Source: Candidatus Moraniibacteriota bacterium (GTDB lineage Bacteria > Patescibacteriota > Minisyncoccia > Moranbacterales > UBA1568). From it: 64,000 bases of DNA. The notes below the pieces were generated by a model that worked only from the letters and a program-made list of their open reading frames with translations, was not told where the DNA came from and did not search any database. The position numbers were made by a program, and so were the translations under genes. The DNA is taken from the NCBI GenBank assembly GCA_016699875.1, contig CP064989.1, positions 776,788 to 840,787 of the forward strand, in the 5' to 3' direction. Positions 685 through 42,868 of this stretch are shown piece by piece; within the stretch, counting starts at the first letter, position 1; the number at the start of each line of letters is the position of its first letter.

Positions 685-694
685 ATAAGAAAAT

Positions 695-1750: not shown

Positions 1751-1971
1751 GGAAGGTCAGAAGATGGGAGATAGAGGGTGGAAGATGGAAATTTGGAATT
1801 CAGGATACTAGGTTACGAATCATCCTACCTATTATATTAACTGTATTAACTCTTTTTCCGCTATTCCAATTCAACTCTTCCTTTCTATCTCCCGACCGAA
1901 GTGGAGGGATCTCAATCGCGTTAGTGATGCGGGAGAGAGAAGATGGGGGTTGGAAGGTAGGAGAGGGGGAA

Positions 1972-2457
1972 ATGAAAAATATGGCAAAATGTCAGATATT
2001 TAATATTCGGTACCCCAAAAGTTCTTCTCAGGGGTTTACAATCATTGAATTGCTACTCGTTGTAGCAATTTTCTTTGCTGTTGCTGGTTTTGCTCCAGCT
2101 TTTTACAACCGGTTTTTTTTACAAGATGCGGTAGTTGAAGCGGCTGATCGCATAGCGGGATCACTCCGAAATGCACAGGGATTTTCGCTTGCTGGGAAGG
2201 GGAGTCTTCCATGGGGAGTAGCTCTCAATGGTAATGCGGTTGTTTTGTTTCAGGGCAATTCATTCGCCACTCGGAATACAGCACTTGATCGGCAAATTGC
2301 TCTGCCTTCATCGGTGTCAATAAGTGGACTCAGCGAAACCGTTTTTGCTCGTGTGTCAGGGATGCCGACAGCGCCGCTCACGATTTCTCTTACTGCTTCT
2401 GGCGGCGTGTCGCGCAGCGTTCTCATGAACTCACTTGGCGTGGTGAGTCGGGAATAA
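1972..2457 (+). CDS. Type IV (pseudo)pilin-like protein with prepilin cleavage/methylation motif
   Basis: N-terminus ...KSSSQG|FTIIELLLVVAIFFAVAGFA is a class III signal peptide (G|FTxxE + hydrophobic helix); start chosen at ATG 1972 preceded by purine-rich RBS (ggtaggagaggggg); ORF track starts it at 1924. Confidence 0.75.
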   Translation: MKNMAKCQIFNIRYPKSSSQGFTIIELLLVVAIFFAVAGFAPAFYNRFFLQDAVVEAADRIAGSLRNAQGFSLAGKGSLPWGVALNGNAVVLFQGNSFATRNTALDRQIALPSSVSISGLSETVFARVSGMPTAPLTISLTASGGVSRSVLMNSLGVVSRE

Positions 2458-2505
2458 GGGCGATAAATGCCTTGCTTGAAGCGAGGGTAAATAATTGTGC
2501 TCATA

Positions 2506-2546
2506 AAAACAAAACAGGGAACGTTGAAACGTCCCTGTTTTGTTTT
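2506..2546. terminator. Bidirectional rho-independent terminator between convergent pilin gene and surface-protein gene
   Basis: Perfect 15-bp stem aaaacaaaacaggga / tccctgttttgtttt with 11-nt loop; A-run on one side, T-run on the other. Confidence 0.8.
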
Positions 2547-2579
2547 TTGCTGCCCTATCTAAATTCAATGCTCTACATG

Positions 2580-3030
2580 CTACATCCCCGCCCCCTGCAC
2601 CTGCCAGTAGAACGTAGAACACGTTGTGTCTCTGCATCCGCACTTCCATCGGCCTCCTTGTATACTGCAGGTCATACCAACCAGGTAGGCGGGATCGGAA
2701 GCGCTGGTTGTAGAGATATCGGTATCGGTGAGAGTGGTAGAGACACTTCCTTGGCACCAGTCTCCATTCAAGGCTCCGGTACAGGTTCCGGTGAAGGAGG
2801 TCCAGTCAGATATACCGGGATCATAGTAGTAGCCTTTGGTATAGACGATACGGGTAGTGTCTCCGGTGATACCGAGGGTGGCGTTTATCGTGTGGGTATC
2901 ACTGCTGGTACAGGTGGTGGAGATGAGAGGGGTGTTACTCACAAAGACGTCATAGGGGGCACCGTAGCCGGTGTAGGTTGAGGTGGTGAAGTTGGTGGGG
3001 GTGACGGTGGAGCAGGAGGTGGGGGTGGAG
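2580..3030. repeat. Left copy of ~450-bp inverted repeat (C-terminal cassette of surface protein); partner at 9197..9650
   Basis: Reverse complement of 2580-3030 aligns by eye to 9197-9650 with only ~11 substitutions; mirrored spurious ORFs in the six-frame track (2472..2981+ vs 9249..9479-; 2431..2757- vs 9473..9676+) confirm it. Confidence 0.85.
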
Positions 3031-5117
3031 GTTCCTCCTGTAGTGAGTGGGGTGTTCATGTCGGTCTGTATTTCTGACTGGGTGAGGGCAGTGTTGTAGA
3101 TTCTTACGTCGTCGATTCTTCCATTCCAACTCTGATTGCTCCAACCCATACCGACATGGACGGGATTGGTTGAGGATTGAAGTGTAGCAGTGATATTTGT
3201 TGATTGAGTACTCTGAACACCATTCAAGTATACCGTGAGCGTATTGTTTGTATCATCAAAGATGCCAGTGACATGAGTCCAGGTATTGAGGGAGAGCGTG
3301 GTTGTGGTAGTTGCGGTATACCAGATTCCTCCACTGGAGAATCCTACCTGTATTTGTCCACTGTTGGTTTCTTGGAGGTGGTAGTCGGAAGAAGAATCGT
3401 TTACCTTGGTGATAATATCTCGATCTCCGGAGAAACTCGTGGGATACACCCAGGCAGAGAGCGTGAGGGATGAGGTGAGATTAAGCGTGCTTGGGTTGCC
3501 GATATTCACCAGATCATCCACTCCATCAAAAGTGAGAGAGTCGCTGTATTTTCCGGTCGTATTCCAGCTCGTGCCGTTTTGGAGCGCCCCCGTATTCGTG
3601 TGTCCGGAAACATCTTCAGTCGTAGTTCCTGATCCTTCATTGAAGTTAAGTCCGAGCATGAGAGAATCAGAGACCGGAGGCGCCTGATCAGTCGTAGCTT
3701 GAGATACGGATGAGTAGGAAGAGGTATTGTTTGCTGCATCTGTGGCTCGTACTCGGTAGCGGTACGTAGTAGAGGCAGAAAGTCCGGTATCTTGGTAAGA
3801 GTTCGCGGTGGGAGTTCCTACTTGAGAGAAAGTTGTGCAGGATGATCCTGGGCAGCGTTCAACTTGATAGTTGGTAACACTAATGTTGTCTGTGGAAGCG
3901 GTCCAGGTGAGATCGATGGTGCTGGATCCGCCAGTGGTCGGAGTAGCGGCTTGAAGGTTGGTGGGAGTAGTAGGAGGAGTGGTATCGGGAGCCTGAGTCG
4001 TGGCTCCAACGACATTGCTCCATCCGCTGGTATTCCCTGCAGCATCGACGGCTCTTACATGGTAGGAGTAGCCGGTAGAAGCAGTGAGACCGGAATCAGT
4101 GTAGGGAGAGTTTTGTGTAGTTCCAATTTGGGCGAAGTTGCCACAAGAGAGACCAGTGCAACGTTCGATGTCATAGCGGACGACTCCGATATTATCGGTA
4201 GCAGCGGTCCATGAGACAGTGATGCTGGACTCTGAGGTGGCATTGGCAGCGAGTCCGATAGGAGAAGTGGGAGGGGTGGTGTCGGGGGTGGTATTGAGAG
4301 CAACATCACCGTTTGCCATGGTACCGCTGGCTGGGGTGCCTGAGGTGGAGTCAGAGTAGATTTCGAAATCATCCCAATAGGTATGATTGTTGGCATCGTG
4401 AGCCCATTCGGGACCATTATCTGACCAGTTGGATATTATGTTTAACTCATTCCATTTTTGGGATGAACTAAATCCTGTCTTCTCCCATTCCAAATAATCG
4501 TCTACCCAAATACGAAAAATCGAGCTACCTCCTCCTTTAGAGTAGAATTCCAACTTGTGCCACTGGGTATTTCCTATCAGCCCTGAACCGTAATTATTCC
4601 AATTGTTACAGGTTCCGTCAAGACACTCGATGTTTGTGTATATAGGACCTCCTGTTTGCTCCATCTGTCCGTCAGCAATAAAGCTATTTGTTGGATAATT
4701 CCCAGTTATCCGAATCCATTTTGATCCAAATTTATGATCAACATCATTGTCAACTCTTACCCACATGCGTATGAGGAACTCATTAGTGTAACTCCATGAT
4801 CCAAGGACGGCACTACTGTATGACGCAGGGTCATTCCATGCTACAGAACCATTCCAGTTGCATTGCATCATGTGAGATCCTCCGTGCGGGGAGTTACCAT
4901 CAATAGCCGTTAAGACATTGGTACATTTGTCATTTGAGCCACCCTGACTCCATAAGTTGGTATTTCCGCTTTCGAGGTCGTCGTAGAAGACTCGGGTAGC
5001 AGCGGAAGCGTTTCTGTTTCCCAGAAAGAGCATTGCCATGATGGACAATACGAAAAAACTCGCTCGCAAAAAGAGTGAACTTGTTCGAGAAATATTCATA
5101 AGATTTCTATTTTTCAT
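2580..5117 (-). CDS. Large secreted surface protein: signal peptide, novel N-terminal domain, 2x fibronectin type III, LamG/concanavalin-like domain, C-terminal Cys-rich ~148-aa domain
   Basis: 845 aa; N-terminal signal peptide (FFVLSIMAMLFLGNRNASAATRVFYDD); two FN3 repeats (ITVSWTAATDNIGVVRYDIERCTGLSC...YSYHVRAVDAAGNTSGWS and IDLTWTASTDNISVTNYQVERCPGSSC...YRYRVRATDAANNTS); LamG_3-type motif (NGRIDDVRIYNTALTQSEIQ); C-terminal domain near-identical to that of 7479..9650. Confidence 0.85.
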   Translation of the reverse strand: MKNRNLMNISRTSSLFLRASFFVLSIMAMLFLGNRNASAATRVFYDDLESGNTNLWSQGGSNDKCTNVLTAIDGNSPHGGSHMMQCNWNGSVAWNDPASYSSAVLGSWSYTNEFLIRMWVRVDNDVDHKFGSKWIRITGNYPTNSFIADGQMEQTGGPIYTNIECLDGTCNNWNNYGSGLIGNTQWHKLEFYSKGGGSSIFRIWVDDYLEWEKTGFSSSQKWNELNIISNWSDNGPEWAHDANNHTYWDDFEIYSDSTSGTPASGTMANGDVALNTTPDTTPPTSPIGLAANATSESSITVSWTAATDNIGVVRYDIERCTGLSCGNFAQIGTTQNSPYTDSGLTASTGYSYHVRAVDAAGNTSGWSNVVGATTQAPDTTPPTTPTNLQAATPTTGGSSTIDLTWTASTDNISVTNYQVERCPGSSCTTFSQVGTPTANSYQDTGLSASTTYRYRVRATDAANNTSSYSSVSQATTDQAPPVSDSLMLGLNFNEGSGTTTEDVSGHTNTGALQNGTSWNTTGKYSDSLTFDGVDDLVNIGNPSTLNLTSSLTLSAWVYPTSFSGDRDIITKVNDSSSDYHLQETNSGQIQVGFSSGGIWYTATTTTTLSLNTWTHVTGIFDDTNNTLTVYLNGVQSTQSTNITATLQSSTNPVHVGMGWSNQSWNGRIDDVRIYNTALTQSEIQTDMNTPLTTGGTSTPTSCSTVTPTNFTTSTYTGYGAPYDVFVSNTPLISTTCTSSDTHTINATLGITGDTTRIVYTKGYYYDPGISDWTSFTGTCTGALNGDWCQGSVSTTLTDTDISTTSASDPAYLVGMTCSIQGGRWKCGCRDTTCSTFYWQVQGAGM

Positions 5118-5223
5118 ATTCTACAATTTTATGAAGCATATGAAGTAATTGTAGCACAATCCGTATGGAGGGTGAGAGAGTTTGACTGAGAGTTGTCAAT
5201 GATGAGGGTAGCTCTGGAAATAA

Positions 5224-5234
5224 TCTGATATACT
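5224..5234 (+). promoter_or_regulatory. Extended -10 promoter (cTGaTATACT) ending 6 nt before ATG 5241; implies leaderless mRNA
   Basis: TGnTATACT motif read at 5226-5234; no Shine-Dalgarno between it and the start codon. Confidence 0.45.
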
Positions 5235-5240
5235 ATCAAT

Positions 5241-7448
5241 ATGTATAAAAACACTTCACGATTTCTTCAGTGGACACTTATCACTCTCGTTCTGTCCATA
5301 GTGGCAGGCTTGTATTTTTGGTACGGAAGCAAAGCAGGAGTGAGTATTGATACTCCCAGCATCACAGATACTACAGTAACGAGTGGGCTCATAGCACACT
5401 ACACTTTTGATCCGCCGGATGTGGTGTGGTCAGACGCGATAAGTGAAATTAAGGATCACACAGGAAATGGGTACCATTTCAATGCAGTTGGCTTAGGCGA
5501 ATCTAATCTCGAGCTGGGGCATATAGGACAGGCGCTTAATTTTATTCCGGGTAACGCTACCTCTTTACTTAGAACTGAGGCAGCATTTGATGCTCTTGCC
5601 ACCGGATCGATATCAATGTGGATAAAGTGGGATGGAACAAGCGTAGGAACTAGCGGGACACTCCTTGATCGAGGAGACTGTGGGTCGAATAATGGCCAAT
5701 TCCAGCTCTATATGGATATGGCAGCAAGCGCTATTGGTCTTTGGATGACTGCCGTGAGTGCGGGATGCTCAGCAACTGTCGACGCAGAGACAACGCTTGC
5801 AATTTCAGATCCGAAAGCATGGCATCATATAGTTTTTACGGACAGCTCTTCAGGGCATGTTGTCTATATTGATGGCAGTCCTCAGGCGCTTTCTTATACA
5901 TCGGGAAGTTCATCGGTAGATTTCTTCTTTGATAACGTGGGAGGGAGTCAGGAATATCAAATTGGCAGGAATAGTTCAGAGGAATTCGGCGGCCTTATAG
6001 ATGATGTCCGCATATACAATCGCGCGATCTCCGCTTCCGAAGTCTACCAACTTTATACTACTGGAACTGCGAAAGTAAACGCGCCGACAGAAGACCCCCT
6101 CTCCCAATCCCTCCGTGGCTACTGGAAACTCGACACCGGAAGCGGCACCTCTGCCACGGACTCTTCCGGCAATGGGAACACCCTTGCTATGACTGGTTCT
6201 CCCGGTTGGGTCACCGGAAACATCGGTCCCTATGCCCTCGACTTTTCCGGAAGTGGACAATACCTCTCCATCGCCTCTCCCTCAAGCGCTCTCGACTTTG
6301 CCGATGGAGCGAGCTTCACTCTGACTGGCTGGTTTAATCGAGATACATTCACCAGTGACCATACCATCCTCTCCACCAAGAGCGGACAATCCACTGAAAG
6401 TGATGGATATATTGCCTATATTGACGATGCAACCGGTCAGCTTATCATTCGCTTTGATGAAAATGGAACCACTGAGGCAAGAACATTTACATCTTCATCT
6501 ACCTTTACTATCGCTACTGGTTGGCATAACTTTGCTCTCTCTTGGAATGAAAGCGCTCCCGATGCCGTTCTCTATATCGATGGTAAACCTGATGGGTCAG
6601 GAAGCGGAACCGTCTTTGCCAGTATGGGAAATCTTTCCAACACCAATGCTTTCTATATTGGTGCTGAAACCGATGCTGGGAATCCTTTCGACGGAAAACT
6701 TGATGATATCCGTATCTATGGTTATGCCCTTAGTGCTGATCAGGTGAAGAAGATATATAATACCACCAGTCCCACGCAACCGATCGATACAAGTCTTGTT
6801 GGACATTGGACTTTCGATGGGGCGGATGTTGACTCGGCGAACGGTATTGTTCGCGATAAGTCAAGAAGCGGGAATGACGGAACATTCAATACGCCGTATG
6901 TCTCGCCGGCTGTCGGAAAATCGGGACAGGGCATCTCTTTTGACGGAACCGGATGGGAATTTATCCCATTAGCTTCAATGCGAAACTTGGAGATGGGCAC
7001 TGGAGATATGACCGTCAACGTGTGGGTACGTCTGGTGAGCAGTAATGCCGACACATACTTTGTGAACAAAAAAGACTCTGGCCTTGAATCGGGAGAAGGA
7101 TATTCTTTTTACTACTCCAACTCTCTTTCGAGTCTAGTCGTCTTAATCGGAACCGGATCGGCACATACATACTACGACACTTCGACAGCCTCTCTCCAGG
7201 ATGATCAATGGCATATGGTTTCATATGTTGTCGATAGGGACGCTGGAATCTCATTCTATCTCGACGGAACGTTTCTCGATATGGATGGAACAAGTGTGTA
7301 TAATGGAACTGATATAACGAACGCGTCGGAATATCCCGGTCTCGGGTATTCTGACGGAAACGGCGATGTTGTTTCCTACGATGATATTCGGATTTATAAT
7401 AGAGTGCTTTCTTCCGATGAAATTTCGAACTTATATCGTATAATGTAG
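5241..7448 (+). CDS. Membrane-anchored secreted protein with three LamG/concanavalin A-like (LamG_3) domains
   Basis: 735 aa; N-terminal signal-anchor (WTLITLVLSIVAGLYFWYG); three repeats of the LamG_3 signature (GGLIDDVRIYNRAISASEVYQLY; GKLDDIRIYGYALSADQVKKIYN; SYDDIRIYNRVLSSDEISNLY); divergently transcribed from 2580..5117. Confidence 0.8.
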   Translation: MYKNTSRFLQWTLITLVLSIVAGLYFWYGSKAGVSIDTPSITDTTVTSGLIAHYTFDPPDVVWSDAISEIKDHTGNGYHFNAVGLGESNLELGHIGQALNFIPGNATSLLRTEAAFDALATGSISMWIKWDGTSVGTSGTLLDRGDCGSNNGQFQLYMDMAASAIGLWMTAVSAGCSATVDAETTLAISDPKAWHHIVFTDSSSGHVVYIDGSPQALSYTSGSSSVDFFFDNVGGSQEYQIGRNSSEEFGGLIDDVRIYNRAISASEVYQLYTTGTAKVNAPTEDPLSQSLRGYWKLDTGSGTSATDSSGNGNTLAMTGSPGWVTGNIGPYALDFSGSGQYLSIASPSSALDFADGASFTLTGWFNRDTFTSDHTILSTKSGQSTESDGYIAYIDDATGQLIIRFDENGTTEARTFTSSSTFTIATGWHNFALSWNESAPDAVLYIDGKPDGSGSGTVFASMGNLSNTNAFYIGAETDAGNPFDGKLDDIRIYGYALSADQVKKIYNTTSPTQPIDTSLVGHWTFDGADVDSANGIVRDKSRSGNDGTFNTPYVSPAVGKSGQGISFDGTGWEFIPLASMRNLEMGTGDMTVNVWVRLVSSNADTYFVNKKDSGLESGEGYSFYYSNSLSSLVVLIGTGSAHTYYDTSTASLQDDQWHMVSYVVDRDAGISFYLDGTFLDMDGTSVYNGTDITNASEYPGLGYSDGNGDVVSYDDIRIYNRVLSSDEISNLYRIM

Positions 7449-7478
7449 AACATGCTAATTTTTTAGTGGACTTTTGTT

Positions 7479-9650
7479 GTGAAAACGCTTCGCGTAGTTA
7501 TGTTCGTTGCTCTGGGTTGTATTTGCGCGTCGAAAGCGAGCGCTGCCACGCGAGTTTTCTATGACGGCTCTGAGGCGGGAAATACCAACCTGTGGAGTCA
7601 GGCTGATTATCGGGATAAGTGCACATCGGTTACTTCGGCTGCCGATGGTGTTACGGGGCCATATTCCGGGTCGAGAATGATTCGCTGCAATACCGATGGC
7701 ACGGTTGCTTGGAATACGCCGAAATGGTTTGAGACAATGGCACTGAATTCTTTTCCTTATACGAACGAATTCTTGTTTCGAGCAGAAGTTCGAGTGGATA
7801 AAAATCACGCGAGAAGCGGTGATTCTCCGAAAAAGATTCTCCGTTGGTTTACCGGGAGTATTGACTACTTCGATTCAATCCATGATTCTTCAGGTTTCAA
7901 GAATGAGGGGCCAATTACATCTGGGTCGTATTGGGGTGATGCTCCCGGAGATAACACAGCATCATCGCAGAAATGGGGGAAAGTCGAGGTATACTATAAC
8001 AGTTCGAACAGGAAGCTTCGAGAGTGGCATGATGACGTGCTTATCCGAGATGAAACAACGGGAAATCTCGGTGGGAAATGGTACCCTTTGTATATCACTT
8101 CAAATTATGAACAGGTGCCATCGGGAGATAGTTTGAACTACGTCTATTTTGATGATGTGGAGATTTATTCTGATGCTACCTCTGGCACTCCATCTGCTTC
8201 TGGTACCATGGCTAATGGGGATGTATTGGTAAGTGGTGGAAGCGGCGGCACCTCCGACACTACTCCTCCCTCCAGTCCCACAAATCTTGCCGCTAATGCT
8301 ACGAGTGCCTCCGGTATTTCGGTCTCTTGGAATTCGGCTACTGACAATGTTGGGGTAGTTGGCTATCAGATTGAGCGCTGTACCGGACTCTCGTGCTCGA
8401 ATTTTACTCAAGTCGGAACTCCTTCTTCATCTCCGTTTGTTGATTCAAATCTTTCTGCTTCTACTGGCTACTCCTATCATGTGAGAGCGGTAGATGCTGC
8501 CGGAAACACGAGCAGCTGGAGCAATGTGGTTGGTGCCACGACTCAAGATGTTGCACAAACTCCTACTGTCACGCTTTCGGCAAATCCGACCAGTATCGCG
8601 TCAGGGTCTTCTTCTGTGCTCACATGGAGTAGTACAAATGCTACCAGCTGCACCGCCTCTGGAAGCTGGTCTGGCACCAAGTCAACGAGCGGTACTCAGT
8701 CCGTTTCGCCAACCTCGACAAGCACTTATACCCTCACATGCACCGGAACGGGAGGGAGTGCAAACCAGAGTGTGACGGTAACAGTCTCTGATCCAAACGA
8801 AGTTATCATTGATAACACCGACACCGCATCTGTCTCTTCTTCTGGGAGCTGGCTTCCATCAACTGCCTATCCCGGATACTATGGAAGCGATTATTTCTAC
8901 TCTTCCACCACAGCCGGAGAATGGTTCCAATGGACCGCATCTTCTCTTGTTCCAGGAACCTACGAGGTGTATGCCCGATGGCTGGCAGTCACCGGAAGAC
9001 CAACTGATGTGAACTATCAAGTCACCCATGCTTCCGGTGCCGCAACAGTCGGACCGGTTAATCAGGAGATAAACGGATCCCAATGGAATCTTCTCGGTAC
9101 TTACAGCTTCAATACAACCGGAGCGGTCAAAGTGATTGGAACTGCAACCGGATGGGAGGGAACCGCTGCTGACGCCGTACGATTCCTCAAAGTGACATCC
9201 TCCACCCCACAACCCTGCTCCACTGTCACTCCCACCAACTTCACCACCTCAACCTACACCGGCTACGGTGCTCCCTATGACGTCTTTGCGAGTAACACCC
9301 CTCTCATCTCCACCACCTGTACCAGCAGTGATACCCACACGATAAACGCCACCCTCGGTATCACCGGAGACACTACCCGTATCGTCTACACCAAAGGCTA
9401 CTACTACGATCCCGGTATATCTGACTGGACCTCCTTCACCGGAACCTGTACCGGAGCTTTGAATGGAGACTGGTGCCAAGGAAGTGTCTCTGCCACTCTC
9501 ACCGATACCGATATCTCTACAGCGAGCGCTTCCGATCCCGCCTACCTGGTCGGTATGACCTGCAGCATACAGGGAGGCCGATGGAAATGCGGATGCAGAG
9601 ATACAACGTGTTCTACGTTCTACTGGCAGGTGCAGGGGGCGGGGATGTAG
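7479..9650 (+). CDS. Large secreted surface protein, paralog of 2580..5117: signal peptide, shared N-terminal domain, FN3, Ig-like domain, CBM-like jelly-roll domain, shared C-terminal Cys-rich domain
   Basis: 723 aa; signal peptide (VMFVALGCICASKASAATRVFYDG); FN3 (ISVSWNSATDNVGVVGYQIERCTGLSC...YSYHVRAVDAAGNTSSWS) ~85% identical to FN3 of paralog; Ig-like (VLTWSSTNATSCTASGSWSGTKSTSGTQSVSPTSTSTYTLTCTGTGGS); domain with GTYEVYARW...VNYQVTHASG...INGSQWNLLGTYSF (carbohydrate-binding-like); C-terminal 148 aa ~97% identical to paralog. Confidence 0.85.
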   Translation: MKTLRVVMFVALGCICASKASAATRVFYDGSEAGNTNLWSQADYRDKCTSVTSAADGVTGPYSGSRMIRCNTDGTVAWNTPKWFETMALNSFPYTNEFLFRAEVRVDKNHARSGDSPKKILRWFTGSIDYFDSIHDSSGFKNEGPITSGSYWGDAPGDNTASSQKWGKVEVYYNSSNRKLREWHDDVLIRDETTGNLGGKWYPLYITSNYEQVPSGDSLNYVYFDDVEIYSDATSGTPSASGTMANGDVLVSGGSGGTSDTTPPSSPTNLAANATSASGISVSWNSATDNVGVVGYQIERCTGLSCSNFTQVGTPSSSPFVDSNLSASTGYSYHVRAVDAAGNTSSWSNVVGATTQDVAQTPTVTLSANPTSIASGSSSVLTWSSTNATSCTASGSWSGTKSTSGTQSVSPTSTSTYTLTCTGTGGSANQSVTVTVSDPNEVIIDNTDTASVSSSGSWLPSTAYPGYYGSDYFYSSTTAGEWFQWTASSLVPGTYEVYARWLAVTGRPTDVNYQVTHASGAATVGPVNQEINGSQWNLLGTYSFNTTGAVKVIGTATGWEGTAADAVRFLKVTSSTPQPCSTVTPTNFTTSTYTGYGAPYDVFASNTPLISTTCTSSDTHTINATLGITGDTTRIVYTKGYYYDPGISDWTSFTGTCTGALNGDWCQGSVSATLTDTDISTASASDPAYLVGMTCSIQGGRWKCGCRDTTCSTFYWQVQGAGM
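9197..9650. repeat. Right copy of ~450-bp inverted repeat; partner at 2580..3030
   Basis: See left copy; identity starts at the domain boundary (PQPCSTVTPTNF...) and stops exactly at the stop codon. Confidence 0.85.
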
Positions 9651-9786
9651 GGGTGAATGGGATGGATAAAATGTGAAATGGGAGCGAGAGTCTTGCGCGG
9701 TGTTGTTTTGGATGGAGAGTCTGACTTATAGAAGTGCGAATGTGGTATACTTGAAACAAGTTCGGATTGTATGAAGAAAATATCGT

Positions 9787-11703
9787 ATGGGCATACAAGA
9801 CCTCGATGAGCAGCTTCATAAACACGATGGAACGCCGCGTGAGCCGTTATATCAAACAAAAGAATTCGATCCGAGTCGTGTTTCGAATGACGTTGAAAAG
9901 TTGTCACTTGAAAAAACAAGCGGATGGAGCGCTGTTCGTAAGCGGTTTGCAGTCGATCAAACAAAGGCGGTTCATCTCGGTATGTGGGCAATCGGCGTGA
10001 TTACCCTGGTAGCGCTTCTTGCGGGAACATTCGTTCGGATTCAACAGTCTTTATTTTCGCAAGATCGTGTGACTGTTTCCGTGACGGGACCGAGCAATGT
10101 GAATAGTTCGGATATCACGGATTTCGTCATCTCCTACGAGAATGCCAACCGATCGGGACTTGCTGATGCGGAATTGATCGTTTCTTATCCGCCGGGATTT
10201 ATTCCGGAAGGGAATGAAAGCACCTTCCGCAATGACGCTTCATCGAGCACGGTTACGATCGGCACTATTAATGCCTTTGAGAAAAAGACGCTTGACTTCT
10301 CCGGGAAGTTTTATGGGTCAAAAGATTCAATCGCGTATATTCACGCTGAATTGCGGTATCGACCGAACAACGTGCAGAGTCAATTCTCATCAGCCGGACA
10401 GAAGAGCGTCAACTTGAGGAGCGCATCACTTGCAGTAGAGCTGGAAGCGCCGCTTTCGGTACCGCCATCGGGAGAAGTGAATTATTTAGTGAATTACGAA
10501 AATACGAGCGATGCAACGCTTTCGAACATACGCATGAAAGCGGCATTTCCCTCAGGTTTTTCTCTCAATGATTCCGATCCGAAGCCGTCTGAAGGGGAAG
10601 TAGTATGGTATCTGGGAAGTATTGCTGCGGGCGAACGCGGGAAAATTCGCCTGACCGGAAATATGAGTGGCGTGCCCAATGAAACGAAGACGCTCAAAGT
10701 TGAGTTTGGAACCTTTCAGGGTGATAATACATTCTTTGCCTATAGCGATGCTGAGCGTACAACAAGAATAGTGGCAGCACCTTTCAGTATTCGACAGTCT
10801 TTGAATGGTTCGATGCCGGGAGCGGTAAATCCCGGTGATTCTTTGCGGTATACGGTGTCCTATCGAAATGACAGCGAGATAGCCTTGCGAGAAGCTATCA
10901 TCACCGTGGAATTGGAGGGGGATGCCCTTGATTTCTCCCAGCTTCGTCCGGAGAAAGGGGCTTATGATAGTCTTCGGAAAACGATTACTTGGAAAGCCTC
11001 TGATATCCAACAACTCGCAAATCTTACCTCGGGTGCTTCAGGGAAAGTCGAGTTTGCTGTGCCAGTTCGAGATGATCTTGTCCCGAAGAGTGTGCTGACA
11101 AAGAACTTCCAAATAAGGACAATAGCAAGAATTGAGAGTCCCGATGTTCCCAATCCAGCCGGAGCCAATAAAATTGTTGCAACCGATACAATGTGGGAAA
11201 AAGTGAATTCCCGACTCCTTCTCGAAACCGCTGGGTATTACCAGGACAGCACGCTGCCGAACACGGGTCCTATTCCTCCGGCAGTCGGCAAGAGCACTAC
11301 CTATACGATGCATTGGTTGTTGTCGAATACGACAAATGATGTGACGGGAGTGGAGGTGTCGGCTGATCTTCCAACCGGCGTCGCGTGGACCGGGAAAACG
11401 TTTCCGAATACTGAGAACATCTCTTATAACGAACGCACAAATAAGATTATATGGAATGTCGGGAGTCTTGGTGTTGGAGAGGGAATCCTTTCGCCAAAGC
11501 GAACCGTGGTTTTTCAGGTGTCAATCCGTCCGGAGGTAAACCAGGTGGATACGTCACCGTTGTTGCTCGGTATGTCATCTGCCAAGGCAACAGACGTCTT
11601 CACGAATGAGACGATTCAATCGACTGCATCGGAGAAAACAACGAACCTCCGAGAAGACGATTCTCTTCCTTCGAATAGCTCTCGGGTCGTGAATGGAGAA
11701 TAG
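9787..11703 (+). CDS. Membrane-anchored surface protein with four tandem DUF11/CARDB-like beta-sandwich repeats
   Basis: 638 aa; N-terminal cytoplasmic segment then TM (LGMWAIGVITLVALLAGTF); four ~110-aa repeats each with a 'VxYxxxYxNxS/G' pattern (VISYENANRSG; LVNYENTSDATLSN; YTVSYRNDSEIAL; TMHWLLSNTTNDVTG). Confidence 0.7.
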   Translation: MGIQDLDEQLHKHDGTPREPLYQTKEFDPSRVSNDVEKLSLEKTSGWSAVRKRFAVDQTKAVHLGMWAIGVITLVALLAGTFVRIQQSLFSQDRVTVSVTGPSNVNSSDITDFVISYENANRSGLADAELIVSYPPGFIPEGNESTFRNDASSSTVTIGTINAFEKKTLDFSGKFYGSKDSIAYIHAELRYRPNNVQSQFSSAGQKSVNLRSASLAVELEAPLSVPPSGEVNYLVNYENTSDATLSNIRMKAAFPSGFSLNDSDPKPSEGEVVWYLGSIAAGERGKIRLTGNMSGVPNETKTLKVEFGTFQGDNTFFAYSDAERTTRIVAAPFSIRQSLNGSMPGAVNPGDSLRYTVSYRNDSEIALREAIITVELEGDALDFSQLRPEKGAYDSLRKTITWKASDIQQLANLTSGASGKVEFAVPVRDDLVPKSVLTKNFQIRTIARIESPDVPNPAGANKIVATDTMWEKVNSRLLLETAGYYQDSTLPNTGPIPPAVGKSTTYTMHWLLSNTTNDVTGVEVSADLPTGVAWTGKTFPNTENISYNERTNKIIWNVGSLGVGEGILSPKRTVVFQVSIRPEVNQVDTSPLLLGMSSAKATDVFTNETIQSTASEKTTNLREDDSLPSNSSRVVNGE

Positions 11704-33278: not shown

Positions 33279-33938
33279 GTGTGTATGAATTATATTGAAG
33301 GAGGTCAGCCACAGAATCCCGATATGCATCAAGAAACATTTGATGAGGAGGAGGTATATGGTGTCGGTCGCTTCTTGTTGGAGATTGCAAAAATTGTCAT
33401 TCTCGCACTGGTCATTATTATACCTGTCCGAGTGTTCTTCTTCCAGCCGTTCTTTGTGCAGGGAGCAAGCATGGAACCGAATTTCCATGATGGGGAGTAT
33501 TTGGTTGTCGGGGAATTCGGCTATAAGGAGACAGTTGTCGGATTTGGCGGTATCGCTCTATTTGATGTCACGCCCTTCAAGGAATTGCATCGTGGCGATC
33601 CTGTTGTGTTTCGTCCGCCAGGCATTGCTGGACAGTTTTTTATCAAGCGTGTTGTTGGTCTTCCGGGCGAGACAATTGAGATAAATAATTCCCATATCAT
33701 AGTGAAGAATGCTCAGACTCCGGGAGGATTTGTGCTCAATGAACAGATGTATCTTTCTCCAACAGTGGAAACAACCGGGGATCGAGTGGTAACACTGAAG
33801 AATGACGAGTATTTTCTTCTGGGAGACAACCGGACGGCAAGCAAAGACTCTCGCGCATTTGGACCTGTCTCGAAAGATCGTATTACTGGCAAGGTGATGC
33901 TACGGGCTTGGCCATTTGATCGTTTTACACTCTTCTAA
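33279..33938 (+). CDS. lepB: Signal peptidase I (S26 family)
   Basis: 219 aa; box B GASMEP, box D FIKRVVGLPGE, box E GDNRTASKDSRAFGPV. Confidence 0.88.
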   Translation: MCMNYIEGGQPQNPDMHQETFDEEEVYGVGRFLLEIAKIVILALVIIIPVRVFFFQPFFVQGASMEPNFHDGEYLVVGEFGYKETVVGFGGIALFDVTPFKELHRGDPVVFRPPGIAGQFFIKRVVGLPGETIEINNSHIIVKNAQTPGGFVLNEQMYLSPTVETTGDRVVTLKNDEYFLLGDNRTASKDSRAFGPVSKDRITGKVMLRAWPFDRFTLF

Positions 33939-37933: not shown

Positions 37934-39181
37934 ATGGGAAAGAATAATTGTGTTGTTGGTCTTGATATCGGATCCGGGACCATTCGGACAGTCATTGCTG
38001 TTCCTGGGAAAGACCACGATGCTTTGCGTGTGGTTGGCGTTGGATCAGTGGCATCCTCCGGTATTCGTCGCGGGTCAGTTGTTGACATGGAAGGAGCTGC
38101 CCGGGCTCTCCTTGAGTCTCTTTCGCGTGCCGAGGGAATGGCGGGGTTCTCCGTCGGCCAAGCGATTGTTGCGCTTGGCGGACATGAGGTGTTTTTCCGT
38201 GAGGCGAGCGGAGTGGTTGCGGTAGGGAAGGCCGATGGGGAAGTTCTGGATGATGATATCAATCGAGTGCTGGAGCAGGCGAGAAATTCCGCGGCATTAT
38301 CGCCCAATCAAGAAATTCTTCATATTATTCCCAAACAGTACCGTCTCGATGACGAAAAGAATATAAAAGACCCGCTTGGCATGAGCGGTGTCCGGCTCGA
38401 GGTTTCCGCATTGGTGATCGGAGATGCTGCGCAACATACGAAAAATATCTCGCGAGTGCTAGAACAAACCAGTGTAGCTCTTGAGCAATTTGTAGTGGCG
38501 CCCCTTGCGGCATCGGAGGCTGTTTTGGGAACGCGTGAACGAGAACTTGGAGTTGCTCTTGTTGATATTGGTGCGAATACCACTTCGCTTGCTGTCTTTG
38601 AAGAGAGCGATCTTTTGCATGTAAAAATACTTCCCATAGGTTCGGGACATATCACCAATGATATTGCCATTGGTTTGCGTACTTCCATCGATGTTGCTGA
38701 AGAGGTAAAATTGCGTTATGGAAGCGCTCTCCCTGACGACATTAATCCCCAGGAAGATGTTGATCTTTCAGAAATGGACAGTTCGGAAGATGGAGGGGTA
38801 TCTCGCCGACATGTTGCTGAGATTATCGAGGCGCGTGTTGAGGAACTTCTGCGCTACGTTGACGAGGAGTTGAAAGCGATTGGTCGATCCGGACTTTTGC
38901 CAGCAGGTATCGTGCTTACCGGTGGAGGCGCAAAGCTTCCCGGGCTCGTTGATCTTGCCAAAGAGACGCTTCGACTACCGGTGCAAATCGGATATCCAAA
39001 ACCTTTGGGAGGGGTGCTTGATCGCGTAGATGATCCGGAATTTGCAACAGCGGTTGGCTTGGTGCTGTGGGCAGAAGCAAATGCCGACCATATTTCGAGC
39101 CATTCTTCCTGGATGGTTTCTGGAGGTGTCCGTGATGTTATGAATCGGACAAAAAAATTCCTTGGGAAGTTTCTGCCATAG
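37934..39181 (+). CDS. ftsA: Cell division protein FtsA
   Basis: 415 aa actin-like ATPase; VVGLDIGSGTIRTVIAV phosphate-1 motif, GGGAKLPGL, C-terminal amphipathic tail. Confidence 0.9.
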   Translation: MGKNNCVVGLDIGSGTIRTVIAVPGKDHDALRVVGVGSVASSGIRRGSVVDMEGAARALLESLSRAEGMAGFSVGQAIVALGGHEVFFREASGVVAVGKADGEVLDDDINRVLEQARNSAALSPNQEILHIIPKQYRLDDEKNIKDPLGMSGVRLEVSALVIGDAAQHTKNISRVLEQTSVALEQFVVAPLAASEAVLGTRERELGVALVDIGANTTSLAVFEESDLLHVKILPIGSGHITNDIAIGLRTSIDVAEEVKLRYGSALPDDINPQEDVDLSEMDSSEDGGVSRRHVAEIIEARVEELLRYVDEELKAIGRSGLLPAGIVLTGGGAKLPGLVDLAKETLRLPVQIGYPKPLGGVLDRVDDPEFATAVGLVLWAEANADHISSHSSWMVSGGVRDVMNRTKKFLGKFLP

Positions 39182-39273: not shown

Positions 39274-39654
39274 ATGTTTTCTTTTCAATCTTTGCGATTT
39301 CTTCCGTCTTCGAGAAGGAATTGGCTGATTGTTCTTATTATAAGTGTTCCTCTCATTGTTTTCGTGCTCCTCTTGATTTTGAAGAGATCGCCAATGAGTT
39401 TGAATCAGGATGCAGAGGTATATCCTGTTTCTGAAGATTTGGCAGGAGATGCTTCCGCTGATGCTTACAGCGCGGATCTCATGGCTGATTCTGCTGAGCT
39501 TGATTCGTTGCGTGCGGATTCGACTGCTGAGGTGGACGCAGTGCATCAATCTTTTGAACTCGACTTGCTTCGCACGAAGACAAATGAGGGCGATGAAGCG
39601 CCGATTCAGAAGCAGCTTATGGATTTGGACGAGCAGGCAAATACAAATAAATAG
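39274..39654 (+). CDS. Small bitopic membrane protein with acidic, Ala/Asp-rich periplasmic/extracellular tail (possible FtsL/DivIC-like divisome component)
   Basis: 126 aa; single TM (WLIVLIISVPLIVFVLLLIL) then low-complexity acidic segment and short helical C-terminus; located between ftsA and ftsZ. Confidence 0.45.
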   Translation: MFSFQSLRFLPSSRRNWLIVLIISVPLIVFVLLLILKRSPMSLNQDAEVYPVSEDLAGDASADAYSADLMADSAELDSLRADSTAEVDAVHQSFELDLLRTKTNEGDEAPIQKQLMDLDEQANTNK

Positions 39655-39696
39655 GGATGCGCAGGAGATTTTCAAAGTATTTTTAAGGTAAGAAAT

Positions 39697-40551
39697 ATGA
39701 AACATACGAGGCTTCCATCGGCAACCGCAACGTTTTTTCGAAGATCAATGTCAATTCTCGCAGTGGTAGGCGTTACCGGTTTCGTTGTATTCTTGGTGCG
39801 GAGTGGCAATGCCGATTCAATTCCAAGTATCACCGCATTCCAGGCGGCTGATATGGGGTCGAGGGCGGTTATCAAAGGTATGAATCAGCTAGGTTCGAGT
39901 GATGCTATTTCTCATCTTGATGGGAATTGTCACAACGGTATTCTTTCTGGGGAAAATTCGTCGGGAGAATATCAAGTATCATTTCAGAGTACCTCCGGTC
40001 AGCAGATGGGATGTTCGGATAAGTTGGGCGATGTCGCTTCTATAGAGACAGCCGGAATATTTGGTTCGGAGAAACGTATTGTGCGTCGTGTTGTTCAGTC
40101 CGCCTCTGCTGGTCCTGCTGATGGCTCCAACTCATATGTGACTACCGGATCTGAGTCTCAGTATAAGTCAGGTGCGCTTGGTATCGGAGGCTTATTAAAA
40201 GCGTATGCTGGAATAAGCGCGAGTGGTGCCCGTATTACTGACGTTGCTTCGCCAATTAGCGCGAGCGATGTTGCCACAAAAGCATATGTTGATGCTGCCA
40301 ATACTACTTCTGGCGGAGGTAGCTCCTGTACGGGTGTAGTGTCAGGAGGTTGTTATGTAAAGCGAAACTCAATCACTGGCGGGTCTATTCAGTCGACATG
40401 GGGACGAGGATGTAAAGCTGCCTATTCTTCAGCTGGGGATTGCGCGGGTGCGGCGGATGCCTCTCATTCATGTGGTGAAACATACTCCGTGACTGAGTCT
40501 CAAGGATCTGCTGTCTATACACGGTCTTACTGTCTGTGTGCTTCTTTGTAG
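39697..40551 (+). CDS. Secreted Gly/Ser/Ala/Cys-rich fibre-like protein
   Basis: 284 aa; N-terminal signal peptide with SPase I-type site (LVRSGNA|DS); low-complexity G/S/A-rich body, 10 Cys, internal motif ISASDVATKAYVDAANTTSGGG. Confidence 0.55.
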   Translation: MKHTRLPSATATFFRRSMSILAVVGVTGFVVFLVRSGNADSIPSITAFQAADMGSRAVIKGMNQLGSSDAISHLDGNCHNGILSGENSSGEYQVSFQSTSGQQMGCSDKLGDVASIETAGIFGSEKRIVRRVVQSASAGPADGSNSYVTTGSESQYKSGALGIGGLLKAYAGISASGARITDVASPISASDVATKAYVDAANTTSGGGSSCTGVVSGGCYVKRNSITGGSIQSTWGRGCKAAYSSAGDCAGAADASHSCGETYSVTESQGSAVYTRSYCLCASL

Positions 40552-40627
40552 TGTCCAGGTATGAAAGAGGACAGTGTTTTTTGCATGGCAATCCTTTGAT
40601 TCCCAATGTGATAAGCGATGATATGAT

Positions 40628-41242
40628 ATGGTCTCTTCCTGTGGAAGGAGGGTCATCCCTGTTTTCCTCTCGTGTGGTGTAGCGAGCGCCTTTGTGTTTT
40701 TTGGTTTGTATATATGCATATTCAGGGAGGCGCGCACGTATTCTTTGCTGAATGAACCTTCCCATGTTGAACTGAGAGAAGATGCGCAGTGTGTAACCCG
40801 TTCCGAAAAGAGAGAAGTTCGAGGAACCTCCATGGAACCACTGTTTTCTCCGGGGGATACTATCGATATCTCACTGGGGTGGTACGTTTGTCATCTTCCG
40901 GAGCGAGATGACTTTGTAATGCTGCATTTTAGCGGGAATGACGCGCCTATTCTAAAGCGGGTTCGCGGAATTCCCGGTGACAGTTTCGGTGTAGACATTC
41001 TTTCGAATGGGGAGGGTGAGTTTCTGATAAATCACGCCGTATTGAAGAATTCACAGGGAGAAGCGTATCATATCTCTTCAGCGCGGGCGAAAATTTGGAC
41101 ATCCTATAAGGAGCAGTTTCGCGGCATGATTCCCCAGGGGCTCTTTTTCGTGCTTGGAGAGGTGTCTGCCGGGTCGCTGGATTCGTCAAGATTCGGCTTC
41201 GTAAGGCAGTCAGATTTTTTAGGAAAAGTACATGTGAAGTAA
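40628..41242 (+). CDS. Second S26-family signal peptidase I paralog (dedicated/SipW-like role inferred)
   Basis: 204 aa; N-terminal TM; box B GTSMEPLF (Ser nucleophile), box D ILKRVRGIPGD (Lys), degenerate box E SLDSSRFG. Confidence 0.7.
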   Translation: MVSSCGRRVIPVFLSCGVASAFVFFGLYICIFREARTYSLLNEPSHVELREDAQCVTRSEKREVRGTSMEPLFSPGDTIDISLGWYVCHLPERDDFVMLHFSGNDAPILKRVRGIPGDSFGVDILSNGEGEFLINHAVLKNSQGEAYHISSARAKIWTSYKEQFRGMIPQGLFFVLGEVSAGSLDSSRFGFVRQSDFLGKVHVK

Positions 41243-41518
41243 TATTTGAGGTTTTTCTGATTCTCTGGTACACTGGACAGTAGTAAGGGATTTTTCGGGG
41301 GTGTCCTTTGCTGAAGTTTTCAAATAAAGACACACAAGCCGGCTTCTGGTTCTGTCCCTCGAGGAGTCTTCTTCGTATTCGGGGGTGAATCCGATCCGGC
41401 TTTTCTTGACACTGTTTTTTGCCTCGTGATAAAGTGGGGCATTCTCGTGAAGCCCGCTTTTTTGTGTTCGAGTGTCGCGTTTGAAATTCCTGTTTTTCTT
41501 CTTGCCTAAACCTCTTCC

Positions 41519-42868
41519 GTGCATATGGCTGAAATCAAACCGGCAATAGAAACATTTGCAAAGATAAAAGTCGTTGGTGTTGGCGGATCCGGATGCAATG
41601 CGGTTTCGCGTATGATCGAGGCGAAGATAAAAGGAGTTGAGTTTGTCGTGGTGAATACCGATGCGCAGGCACTCCATCATTCTCGAGCAAGTGAGAAAAT
41701 CCATATCGGCAAAAACCTGACTAAAGGTCTTGGTGCGGGTATGAATCCGGAAATCGGTCGTCAGGCCTCTGAGGAGAATCGCGATGAGATTCAGGAAGTC
41801 TTGAAAGGCGCGGACATGGTGTTTGTCACCTGTGGACTGGGCGGCGGAACCGGATCTGGTGCTGCGCCTATTGTCGCCGAGACAGCCAAGGAGATTGGCG
41901 CGTTGACGGTTGGCGTGGTGACAAAACCCTTTGCTTTCGAGGGAGCGCAGCGTCGCGCGATTGCCGAGGAGGCGCTTCGTAATATGCAGGAGCGAGTGGA
42001 TGCTCTCATCACGATTCCGAATGACAAATTGCTTTCCATTATCGATAGAAAAACAACGCTGATAAACGCGTTCCGTATTGTGGATGACGTACTCCGTCAG
42101 GGTGTCCAGGGAATTTCTGATTTGATAACAAAGCCGGGGATTGTGAATGTCGACTTTGCTGATGTCCGCGCTATTATGGAGGATAGCGGCAGCGCATTGA
42201 TGGGCATCGGCATTGCATCGGGCGACAATCGTGCCTTGGAAGCGGCGAAGGCCGCAATTAACAGTCCACTACTTGATCTCTCGATTGATGGTGCCAAGGG
42301 TGTGCTCTTTAATATTTCCGGATCGAGCGATGTCACCATGCTCGAAATAAACGAGGCGGCAAATATTATAACCGAGAATATCGATCCGAATGCCAAAGTG
42401 ATTTTCGGCGCTGTGTCCGATGATCAGGTGCGGAAGGGTGAAGTGCAGATTACGGTGGTGGCGACCGGGTTTGATACCGGGCGTGTGGCAGAGGAACCAT
42501 TCCGAAAACTCTCTCGTATTTCAGCGATGAAAGATAGTCATGCCAATGAACGGGATTTGCAAGAGCGCCGAGTAGTCCACGAGGCAGTGGTTCCTCTTCG
42601 TGAAGCGCCAGCTTCATCGACATCGTTTGAGTCAGTGGAGAGTACCTCTCGACAGGAAGAGTTGCCTGATGATGTAACAAGGCCGACAACGGATGAGGAT
42701 GTCCATGAAAGAATGTTTCCTACGCGGAAATTGGAGCCGAAAATGATTATTGAGGAGAAGATAGCACCTCAAGTGACGCCGATTCGCAGCGATGCAAAGG
42801 ATGACTTCTCCGAAGAGGATGACTTGGAGGTGCCAGCCTTTATTCGAAGAAAGATGAAGAAAAACTGA
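41519..42868 (+). CDS. ftsZ: Cell division protein FtsZ
   Basis: 449 aa; tubulin signature [15 protein letters not shown]7 loop NVDFADV, long disordered C-terminal linker and conserved C-terminal peptide [12 protein letters not shown]. Confidence 0.95.

Follow-up and report, generated by a model that had tools for sequence, protein, structure and literature searches.

The biofilm fibres of Bacillus subtilis are known for the three-part arrangement TapA/TasA/SipW, and in the tapA-sipW-tasA locus, as in sipW-bsaA-bsaB-bsaC of Clostridium perfringens, a dedicated signal peptidase is encoded beside the secreted fibre that it processes and a membrane or anchor accessory. An S26-family protein is also part of the surface-filament loci of the Streptococcus pyogenes pilus islands (SipA/LepA) and of IncP conjugative pili (TraF-TrbC), and is needed for filament biogenesis in the SipA and TraF systems; PMC4049620 describes SipA as devoid of catalytic residues and acting as a chaperone-like factor. 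The mosaic adhesive trimers (MATs) of Bdellovibrio bacteriovorus combine a signal peptide and a conserved N-domain with a trimeric fibre whose adhesive tips are chimeric and diverse, and a Ser-Lys protease is involved in the maturation of 13 of the 21 MATs (PMC10769870). Phage fibres and tailspikes with an N-terminal region of the T7 gp17 type (23sh, 9m4c, 8i4m) carry a neck motif, ..G.RI.nla.P....DAATKaYVDaa, where their proximal, anchoring portion meets the distal one that binds the receptor; in phage fibres this motif connects the anchoring portion with the trimeric shaft. Here we describe three genes located between ftsA and ftsZ in a Candidatus Moraniibacteriota bacterium, an ultrasmall member of the Candidate Phyla Radiation (CPR, Patescibacteria). 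The whole analysed stretch of contig CP064989.1, 64,000 nt long, is called the window, and all coordinates without a locus name are window positions.

The ftsA-ftsZ interval is 2337 bp and holds three open reading frames (ORFs) on the + strand, confirming the three-gene insertion of 2.3 kb proposed in an earlier note on this DNA. The features of the locus are:

37934..39181, + strand: ftsA, the upstream edge of the insert (TIGR01174, 368 bits; PF14450 and PF02491)
39274..39654, + strand: ORF1, bitopic protein of 126 aa
39697..40551, + strand: ORF2, secreted tail-fibre-like protein of 284 aa with 9 Cys
40628..41242, + strand: ORF3, second S26 Ser/Lys peptidase of 204 aa (PF10502, TIGR02227)
41243..41518, + strand: conserved ftsZ upstream region, downstream of the insert (alignment with relatives)
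41519..42868, + strand: ftsZ (TIGR00065, 420 bits)
33279..33938, + strand: LepB, the housekeeping signal peptidase I and first S26 copy, located ahead of hisS (full-length match to PF10502, 141 bits)

With somewhat better than even confidence we read the trio as a fibre cassette with its own peptidase, which has been inserted in one small Moraniibacteriota subclade and likely serves in host adhesion, and whose position beside the division genes is, as part of the same reading, an accident of a local insertion hot spot with no functional tie. By analogy, the cassette is a variation on the theme of a dedicated signal peptidase with a secreted fibre, here with a tail-fibre-like protein and a Ser/Lys enzyme. 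It differs from tapA-sipW-tasA in that SipW is an endoplasmic reticulum (ER)-type Ser-His enzyme whereas ORF3 is of the P-type with Ser and Lys, in that ORF2 has no TasA/camelysin similarity and is tail-fibre-like with an exchangeable tip and not a donor-strand polymer, and in that ORF1 is unrelated to TapA. ORF3 keeps the Ser and Lys that SipA has lost, no sortase or conjugation genes are present, and the score on the TraF model is 24 bits with a cut-off of 100. The comparison with tapA-sipW-tasA and SipA in the earlier note is therefore apt as a way of working, given the linkage in 40 of 80 loci presented below, but membership of the SipW, TasA or SipA families is not supported. Judged by analogy of architecture, the closest functional analogue is the MAT family, which likewise consists of phage-fibre-built surface proteins in a bacterium living on other bacteria (PMC10769870). 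The protease of the MATs is, however, a C-terminal S74 domain acting in cis, whereas the cassette has a separate S26 gene with a predicted membrane anchor, and ORF2 is far shorter (284 aa) with a disulfide-rich tip, the likeness resting on architecture and not on sequence homology. With the phage fibres ORF2 shares the neck motif, and its family the mosaic exchange of distal parts, but only about 30-50 residues are homologous, the PF03906 score is below the cut-off, and ORF2 has a Sec signal and a cellular context.

ORF3 passes the models for Peptidase_S26 (PF10502, 60.1 bits, cut-off 22.9) and for bacterial signal peptidase I (TIGR02227, 60.5 bits, cut-off 47), and keeps the Ser/Lys boxes, as expected from the earlier note, which had taken the third gene for a second signal peptidase I paralogue. 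The following parts can be recognized:

40652-40708, + strand: putative N-terminal transmembrane segment, hydrophobic aa 9-27 (Kyte-Doolittle value 2.2), with the catalytic domain after it
40829-40831, + strand: Ser68 (GTSMEP), aligned with LepB
40955-40957, + strand: Lys110 (ILKRV), aligned with LepB
41171-41197, + strand: GSLDSSRFG, box E, the equivalent of GDN..S.DSR

Ser68, Lys110 and the box E residues are invariant across the ORF3 subfamily, and judged by its residues ORF3 is a catalytically intact second S26 Ser/Lys peptidase, which should have a membrane anchor and an external catalytic domain. Word-index searches returned only 3 homologous proteins for ORF3 and 2 for ORF1, and the subfamily was gathered by scanning metagenome contigs for the pattern of its alignment, which gave 80 loci spanning a GC content of 26 to 58%. 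In a midpoint-rooted neighbour-joining tree 65 non-redundant ORF3 paralogues form one clade and 58 LepBs of Moraniibacteriota the other, each group being monophyletic with respect to the other, and the mean identity is 43% within the ORF3 paralogues, 63% within the LepBs and 22% between the groups, and ORF3 itself shows 23% identity to the LepB of the window and 34% to a homologue in Candidatus Liptonbacteria. Orthologues of the window LepB hold an equal position relative to ftsZ in other Moraniibacteriota. A housekeeping LepB orthologue is excluded by the separate clade and the low between-group identity, a SipW-type (ER-type, Ser-His) peptidase by the P-type Lys110 together with the bacterial TIGR02227 match, and the TraF conjugative pilin-processing peptidase was rejected with 24 bits on TIGR02771 against a cut-off of 100.25. 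The public annotation starts ORF3 at Met69 (136 aa), excluding the catalytic Ser68, and ORF1 (IPK84_03925) at Met41 (86 aa), excluding its transmembrane helix; since residues upstream of both internal methionines are conserved in homologues, both public calls are probably too short and the 204-aa form of ORF3 is favoured.

The link between peptidase and fibre does not rest on the window locus alone, because the peptidase clade adjoins fibre-motif genes in 40 of the 80 metagenomic loci. A hidden Markov model (HMM) built from the 27-residue neck segment found 55 ORFs in 82 S26-paralogue loci, every one on the peptidase strand, and none in 74 control ftsZ loci (1.29 Mb). At E <1e-3, the 231 kb searched up to 2.5 kb from the peptidase contain 48 motif ORFs, spread over the 40 loci mentioned, and the 210 kb beyond 2.5 kb on the same contigs contain none. 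Many of the motif-negative loci are contigs of just 1-2 kb, and of the 33 loci in which each flank measures 1 kb or more, 23 are motif-positive. Four of the ten well-flanked negatives have divergent fibre-like neighbours: L121 and L156 show variants of the motif, L123 has a fibre with an S74-type end, and L126 combines NIGIGT with a Cys-rich tip. Peptidase and fibre are in many loci spaced by about 50-150 bp on the same strand, and in a Liptonbacteria locus the peptidase is surrounded by four fibre paralogues with Gly_rich_2 bodies. ORF2 is the only match to the neck HMM in the window (E 2e-12) and adjoins the only S26 paralogue. The fibre-peptidase pairing recurs across many CPR lineages, and the linkage of ORF2 and ORF3 suggested in the earlier note is upheld by the separate clade and its neighbourhoods. 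The same counts bear on the idea that ORF3 is a redundant general signal peptidase which lies close to fibre genes without substrate specificity. It does pass a generic signal peptidase I model, several signal peptidase I paralogues are present in many bacteria, and some peptidase loci have no fibre neighbour, but a separate old clade found across lineages with a GC content of 26 to 58%, the extreme enrichment (48 near against 0 far) and the tight same-strand spacing typical of operon partners make this quite unlikely.

In most neighbours of the peptidase an N-terminal signal peptide leads into a strikingly conserved junction, AxA|WTxPxxNPPxGN; 19 ORFs of the peptidase loci have it, whereas the control loci are practically devoid of it. 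After the junction come GNVGIGTT.P..KL.V repeats and the neck motif, and then a Gly linker with a tip that varies in kind and is rich in Cys or in Gly (Gly_rich_2). Two peptidase-adjacent fibres are prepilin fusions, namely those of L088, which passes TIGR02532, and L144, and the most divergent S26 paralogues adjoin stand-alone proteins consisting of a signal peptide and a tip. Clade separation, neighbourhood enrichment and junction conservation together make a dedicated processing role of ORF3 for the fibre family likely, with the cut either at the signal junction or internally.

The stand-alone tip proteins are 80-87 aa long and located just upstream of the peptidase (L161 928-1191, L163 4504-4746 and L165 1350-1598), with the motif ..AFRY..C..VSGLTLRG..CICFYSLL and a tip domain common to the full fibres of L120 and L125. 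Directly downstream of the S26 paralogue at least 7 loci encode a small bitopic protein with the motif YYAVYLRTGDLYFGKLS.FP (L095 2445-2876, L101 2703-3011, L147 2545-2895, L151 3062-3361) or the variant YSLVY.Q.G...SYYGQIIKN (L125 2367-2792, L163 5428-5766, L165 2798-3055); this protein, absent from the window, may be a fourth recurrent partner. The NVGIGTT-repeat fibre upstream of the S26 paralogue in L123 (46-1224) ends by eye in a segment like the S74-type intramolecular chaperone (..ERLKRIISGIDNATEKINKLNGIKFEWK..GIVAQEVEKVLPEIV..), and if this holds a cis-acting and a trans protease stand side by side in one genome. The fibre tips of L124 (5986-8097) and L122 (46-561) end with ..NWEWASN....GFRCVR, which presumably resembles the C-type-lectin-fold targets of diversity-generating retroelements, and such retroelements are common in CPR.

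The close homologues of ORF2 form about 18 clusters, all in Moraniibacteriota and without a Pfam domain, and the protein can be divided into the following parts:

39697..39813, + strand: signal peptide or anchor, aa 1-39, with hydrophobic aa 18-36 and the end G-x-A|D/E-S (GNA|DS)
39823..40098, + strand: N-domain, aa 43-134, with 2 conserved Cys; its helix of 22 residues packs against a beta-sheet of antiparallel strands in the predicted model
40099..40116, + strand: SASA|GP, aa 135-140, a candidate site for internal cleavage of the S26 type, which corresponds in position to the AxA|WTxP signal cleavage site of shorter family members
40156..40299, + strand: fibre module, aa 154-201, with the tail-fibre neck motif (SQYKSGALGIGG ... 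ARITDVASPISASDVATKAYVDAA)
40300..40548, + strand: Gly/Ser linker and Cys-rich beta tip, aa 202-284, with 7 Cys, the exchangeable part

The G-x-A|D/E-S site is kept in 18 of 18 close homologues, and GNA|DS aligns with the signal cleavage site VSA|QS of a 410-aa protein in L006 that has the N-domain in common with ORF2. Predicted alone with AlphaFold, the N-domain has a predicted local distance difference test (pLDDT) value of 87.6 and a predicted template modelling score (pTM) of 0.78, and in the model of ORF2 the tip is predicted as a beta domain with pLDDT 70-84 over aa 215-283. The body that the earlier note called low-complexity is therefore two confidently predicted folded domains flanking the fibre motif, and the Cys residues number 9, not 10; its description of ORF2 as a secreted fibre-like protein stands, with a signal or anchor present and a neck motif that matches solved tail fibres. 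The latter match was obtained with the family profile against the PDB, exactly at aa 168-201:

23sh, tail fiber gp9: E 5e-9
9m4c, capsule depolymerase: E 1.5e-5
9m4d, tailspike: E 5.6e-5
8i4m, cyanophage fibre: E 2e-4
8vbx, tail fibre: E 4.5e-4

The comparison with tail-fibre families was thus positive, and since the profile matches are confined to the neck, the resemblance to the phage motif ATKxYVD (ATKAYVD in ORF2) pointed out in the earlier note reflects a real homology that is limited to this segment and does not extend to the rest of the protein. PF03906 (Phage_T7_tail) reaches 14.2 bits, below its cut-off of 25.2, with E 0.036 over aa 173-201 only, and a PHROG tail fibre family matches the neck segment weakly (E 0.005). 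In an exhaustive profile search of 1.84 billion representatives the neck segment was found in 8212 proteins, often repeated in giants, and the full ORF2 architecture in only two or three clusters; the neck segment is also abundant on viral contigs. As a repeat unit the motif is present in 5-37 copies in many giant proteins, for example P0029 (5398 aa, 37 stretches). A routine bacterial lipoprotein, which the earlier note had reckoned with, is excluded, as the first Cys of ORF2 is residue 78 and a lipobox is lacking, and a TasA/camelysin assignment was rejected with PF03906 as the only Pfam or NCBIfam match at E up to 0.1. Scans with Pfam and NCBIfam were empty for ORF1, ORF2, the proteins found at the same position in the related loci L002, L004 and L006, and ten peptidase-adjacent fibres, with four exceptions: fn3/LamG (L004), a sub-threshold Lcl_C, Gly_rich_2 (a Liptonbacteria paralogue) and the prepilin motif of L088.

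The neck motif, being common to phage tail fibres, and a weak match of ORF3 to a PHROG of unknown function could be taken as signs that the cassette is a prophage remnant with a tail-fibre gene and accessory genes. The homology to phage proteins is, however, confined to a motif of 30-50 aa, GC and GC3 (GC content of third codon positions) as well as strand skew of ORF1-3 are unremarkable relative to the neighbouring genes, and a phage origin is very improbable because a scan of viral contigs found no locus of the S26 subfamily, no other phage gene is located nearby, and ORF2 and its relatives bear Sec or prepilin signals that are missing from virion fibres.

The N-domain has a pilin-like layout of a helix on a sheet, and ORF2 might alternatively be a minor pilin or tip adhesin on type IV pili encoded elsewhere, with ORF3 as an accessory. 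Two peptidase-adjacent family members are true prepilin fusions (L088, L144), pilin and pilB genes are found 1.5 kb from the peptidase in L116, and the window itself has pilB, pilC and a pilin at 28-2457. We regard this as improbable: the N-terminus of ORF2 reads FFRRSMSILAVVGV and lacks the prepilin motif G|F/M-x-x-x-E, neither N_methyl nor TIGR02532, passed by the L088 neighbour, matches ORF2, the best pilin fold match is not significant (TM-score 0.38-0.44, E 1.0), the shared N-domain follows an ordinary AxA signal peptide in L006, and the pilus genes of the window lie 37 kb from the cassette.

Homologues of ORF2 were split at K-x-YVD and the identities of the N-part and the tip compared:

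Window and P0002: N-part 64%, tip 86%
P0002 and P0006: N-part 99%, tip 70%
P0003 and P0007: N-part 100%, tip 75%
P0004 and P0007: N-part 91%, tip 99%
P0009 and P0010: N-part 92%, tip 39%
P0011 and P0015: N-part 83%, tip 37%

Judging from these comparisons, the tips are exchanged by recombination between strains, with the switch at the YVDAA/Gly junction. The discordance of N-part and tip is the mosaic pattern of phage receptor-binding proteins and suggests that it is the tip which diversifies and binds a ligand; this ligand is most likely located on the host cell.

In the alignment A/V-x-S/A/G is retained at the SASA|GP position in 18 of 18 ORF2 homologues, and the AxA|WT junction of short family members aligns with SASA|GP, from which we infer a possible internal cleavage site. 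An alternative to cleavage at the signal would be that ORF3 cuts internally and in trans as a maturation or quality-control protease, and that this cut releases or activates the fibre; in ORF2 it would fall behind the N-domain, at SASA|GP, and in the L088 and L144 proteins behind the pilin domain, at SRVSA|A or SRVNA|A. The A-x-S/A/G conserved after the N-domain and aligned with AxA|WTxP speaks for this, as do the prepilin-type fibres beside the peptidase, which need no type I signal peptidase, and the existence of S26 members with non-signal substrates (TraF and the nickel superoxide dismutase (NiSOD) protease, both weak ORF3 matches). A precedent is the cis-acting S74 Ser-Lys chaperone-protease of phage fibres and Bdellovibrio MATs (PMC10769870). 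Classical S26 enzymes cut near the membrane, however, and a site about 100 residues off the anchor is unprecedented in our data set; moreover, the stand-alone proteins of L161, L163 and L165 fit ordinary signal cleavage better, so that we hold internal cleavage to be unlikely, if less so than the redundant peptidase considered above.

ORF1 has a conserved MFSFQSL N-terminus and a single transmembrane helix (nt 39325-39381), and its external tail, with 21 acidic and 5 basic residues, contains three tandem 20-aa acidic repeats (aa 61-120, nt 39454-39633), whose cores LDSL (76), LDLL (96) and MDLD (116) are invariant alignment columns. Homologues of ORF1 are found only inside the fibre cassette, and no family match was detected in Pfam, NCBIfam or PHROG, nor a match to DivIC/FtsL at E up to 0.1. 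ORF1-like bitopic acidic proteins with [E/K]-L-[D/E]-x-L repeats of about 20-aa periodicity are encoded beside fibre genes in unrelated loci, and no such repeat ORF is found in the control loci. The order is peptidase, ORF1-like, fibre in L146, while L109 has a first copy in the order ORF1-like, fibre, peptidase, and a second one upstream of another AWTxP protein. Because ORF1-like repeat proteins flank distant fibre genes, ORF1 is assigned to the fibre module rather than the divisome, and might act as an anchor or chaperone for the fibre.

The position between ftsA and ftsZ was compared in 80 species-representative Moraniibacteriota ftsZ loci by tblastn with six window proteins, flanking and inserted ones taken together. 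Among species-representative genomes, the best matches to the window FtsZ all come from Candidatus Moraniibacteriota. In more than 70 of the 80 loci (L005 and L007-L080, wherever the contig includes ftsA) dagK, ftsA and ftsZ are contiguous with gaps of roughly 150-400 bp, bearing out the statement that ftsA and ftsZ are nearly always adjacent, and an occupied gap is found only in the nearest relatives (FtsZ at least 80% identical). The ORF1-ORF2-ORF3 trio is also present in L001, the complete genome CP064974 (L081/L082), L083 and the metagenomic contigs L086 and L087; the arrangement is thus conserved in part of the relatives and missing from the large majority. In L003 the slot holds ORF1-like and ORF2-like genes. 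The slot of L002 and of the complete genome CP064994 (L006) encodes a 77-aa proline-rich bitopic protein and a secreted protein of 408 or 410 aa, respectively, with the N-domain of ORF2 and a different Cys-rich C-terminal domain, L006 encodes in addition a 730-aa Cys-rich protein, and in L004 LamG and fn3 giants are located upstream of ftsZ. Such varied secreted cargo, restricted to the nearest relatives, indicates that the spacer is a lineage-specific slot for secreted proteins. The alternative cargo proteins (L002 927-2153; L006 5909-8101 and 8414-9646; L004 1909-5385) have their C-terminal domain in common, which is about 120 aa long, matches no Pfam family and can be recognized by W[K/R]CGCRD..C..[N/F]YW[T/M]IQ; the 77-aa proline-rich bitopic protein is encoded ahead of each of them in L002 and L006.

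About 200 bases upstream of ftsZ are conserved in DNA alignments across the subclade, including L005 where ftsA abuts ftsZ, and a σ70-like site, TTGACA-18-TAAAGT, at 41406-41435 is kept in every relative aligned. The promoter and terminator scan is a consensus match that barely exceeds the shuffled expectation and was used only alongside the upstream conservation. As the ftsZ upstream DNA is conserved in all relatives, the cargo is located between the ftsA stop and the ftsZ promoter, and ftsZ is predicted to keep its own promoter downstream of the insert. The scan gave no convincing terminator between ftsA and ORF3, which makes read-through from ftsA plausible, and the trio is probably transcribed in this way. 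Two blocks of the conserved DNA resemble promoters, namely TTCTCTGGTACACTG and the TTGACA-18-TAAAGT site, which has a TG extension, and between them is a G-rich stretch with apparent dyad symmetry. The longest ftsZ ORF begins with GTG at 41519; the homologues all start with MAEIKP, and ATG 41525 is likely the true start.

These observations bear on the proposal of the earlier note that the cassette could be a septum-associated module co-regulated with division, with ORF1 as an FtsL/DivIC-like protein. A part in the divisome or in septum-targeted secretion would agree with the location between ftsA and ftsZ, with plausible co-transcription with ftsA and with the bitopic nature of ORF1. It is nevertheless highly unlikely, as the cassette is missing in more than 70 related species that divide with contiguous ftsA-ftsZ, unrelated secreted proteins take the same slot in sister genomes, ftsZ has its own conserved promoter region, and peptidase and fibre are found away from ftsZ outside one small subclade, with 0 of 78 other peptidase loci carrying ftsZ or comEC. 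ORF1 itself, in addition to having no family match and only cassette-borne homologues, has an acidic repeat tail and no leucine-zipper coiled coil.

The wider gene order on the + strand is lepB, hisS, a hypothetical gene, HIT, an S21-like gene, yqeY, dagK and ftsA, followed by ORF1-3, ftsZ, comEC, a metallo-beta-lactamase (MBL)-fold gene and further genes. Another surface-protein cluster is located at the start of the window (28-11703), 27-37 kb away from the cassette. It begins with a type IV pilus block, in which pilB is represented by its 3' part and is accompanied by pilC and by a prepilin gene (1924-2457). Then come the genes of four large surface proteins, among whose domains are LamG, fn3, Golvesin_C and DUF11 (2580-5117 on the minus strand, 5241-7448, 7479-9650 and 9787-11703).

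In the favoured reading, that of a fibre cassette with its own peptidase, ORF2 would be exported via Sec and would represent a phage tail fibre or tailspike design turned into a bacterial adhesin, with a signal or anchor, a proximal N-domain, the neck motif (..RItNva.P....DAATKaYVDAA) at which the fibre may trimerise, a Gly linker and a small disulfide-rich tip. ORF3 would mature the fibre family by cutting at the signal junction GNA|DS or after the N-domain at SASA|GP, and ORF1 would be the membrane-anchored partner whose three acidic 20-aa repeats hold or chaperone the fibre on the cell surface, the trio being read through from ftsA and ftsZ driven by its own promoter. Several points speak against this. 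The slot of L003 lacks the peptidase, which is thus not obligatory in cis, and five well-flanked peptidase loci are without any fibre-like neighbour. The prepilin signals of L088 and L144 argue against the simple removal of an N-terminal signal as the task of the enzyme in all cases, and many fibre-family members have ordinary AxA sites that the housekeeping LepB should cut. Fold searches with both ORF2 models gave no significant match, and aa 135-214 are of low confidence when predicted as a monomer, with pLDDT <50 in the motif region. Host binding by ORF2 is suggested by its architecture and mosaicism only.

A broader proposal, to which we give distinctly less credence than to the cassette itself and which should be taken as tentative, is that many CPR lineages share a three-component fibre-sorting system consisting of tail-fibre-like surface proteins marked by a conserved junction, the phage neck motif and hyper-exchangeable tips, the dedicated S26 clade and a bitopic repeat anchor. 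The clade would recognize the junction, be it AxA|WTxPxxNPPxGN or, where an N-domain has been added, the A-x-S that follows it, and would mature or release fibres in trans as S74 does in cis, while the anchor, with its acidic repeats of about 20 aa, could offer three repeats for one trimer. Such a system would be a principal host-recognition apparatus of the episymbionts, with the tip repertoire setting the host range as in phages.

A literature search for a pairing of S26 peptidases and tail fibres in CPR found no description, and no curated family for the cassette-type proteins was found in Pfam or NCBIfam. How CPR episymbionts recognize and hold their hosts is described as largely unknown, and type IV pili as the only tested factor (PMC12206443). 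The window locus and the 80 related loci form a compact, genetically testable module, with a phage-fibre-like protein with recombining tips, a peptidase clade of its own and a repeat-bearing membrane partner, and this module is a candidate for host recognition by CPR episymbionts. With the S26 clade, the signal peptidases dedicated to particular substrates would gain a new class, and the spacer between ftsA and ftsZ, usually thought invariant, is a cargo slot in one lineage. If the tips set the host range, this would parallel phage tail fibres and the MAT proteins of Bdellovibrio, and the tips would be markers for predicting CPR-host pairs from metagenomes.

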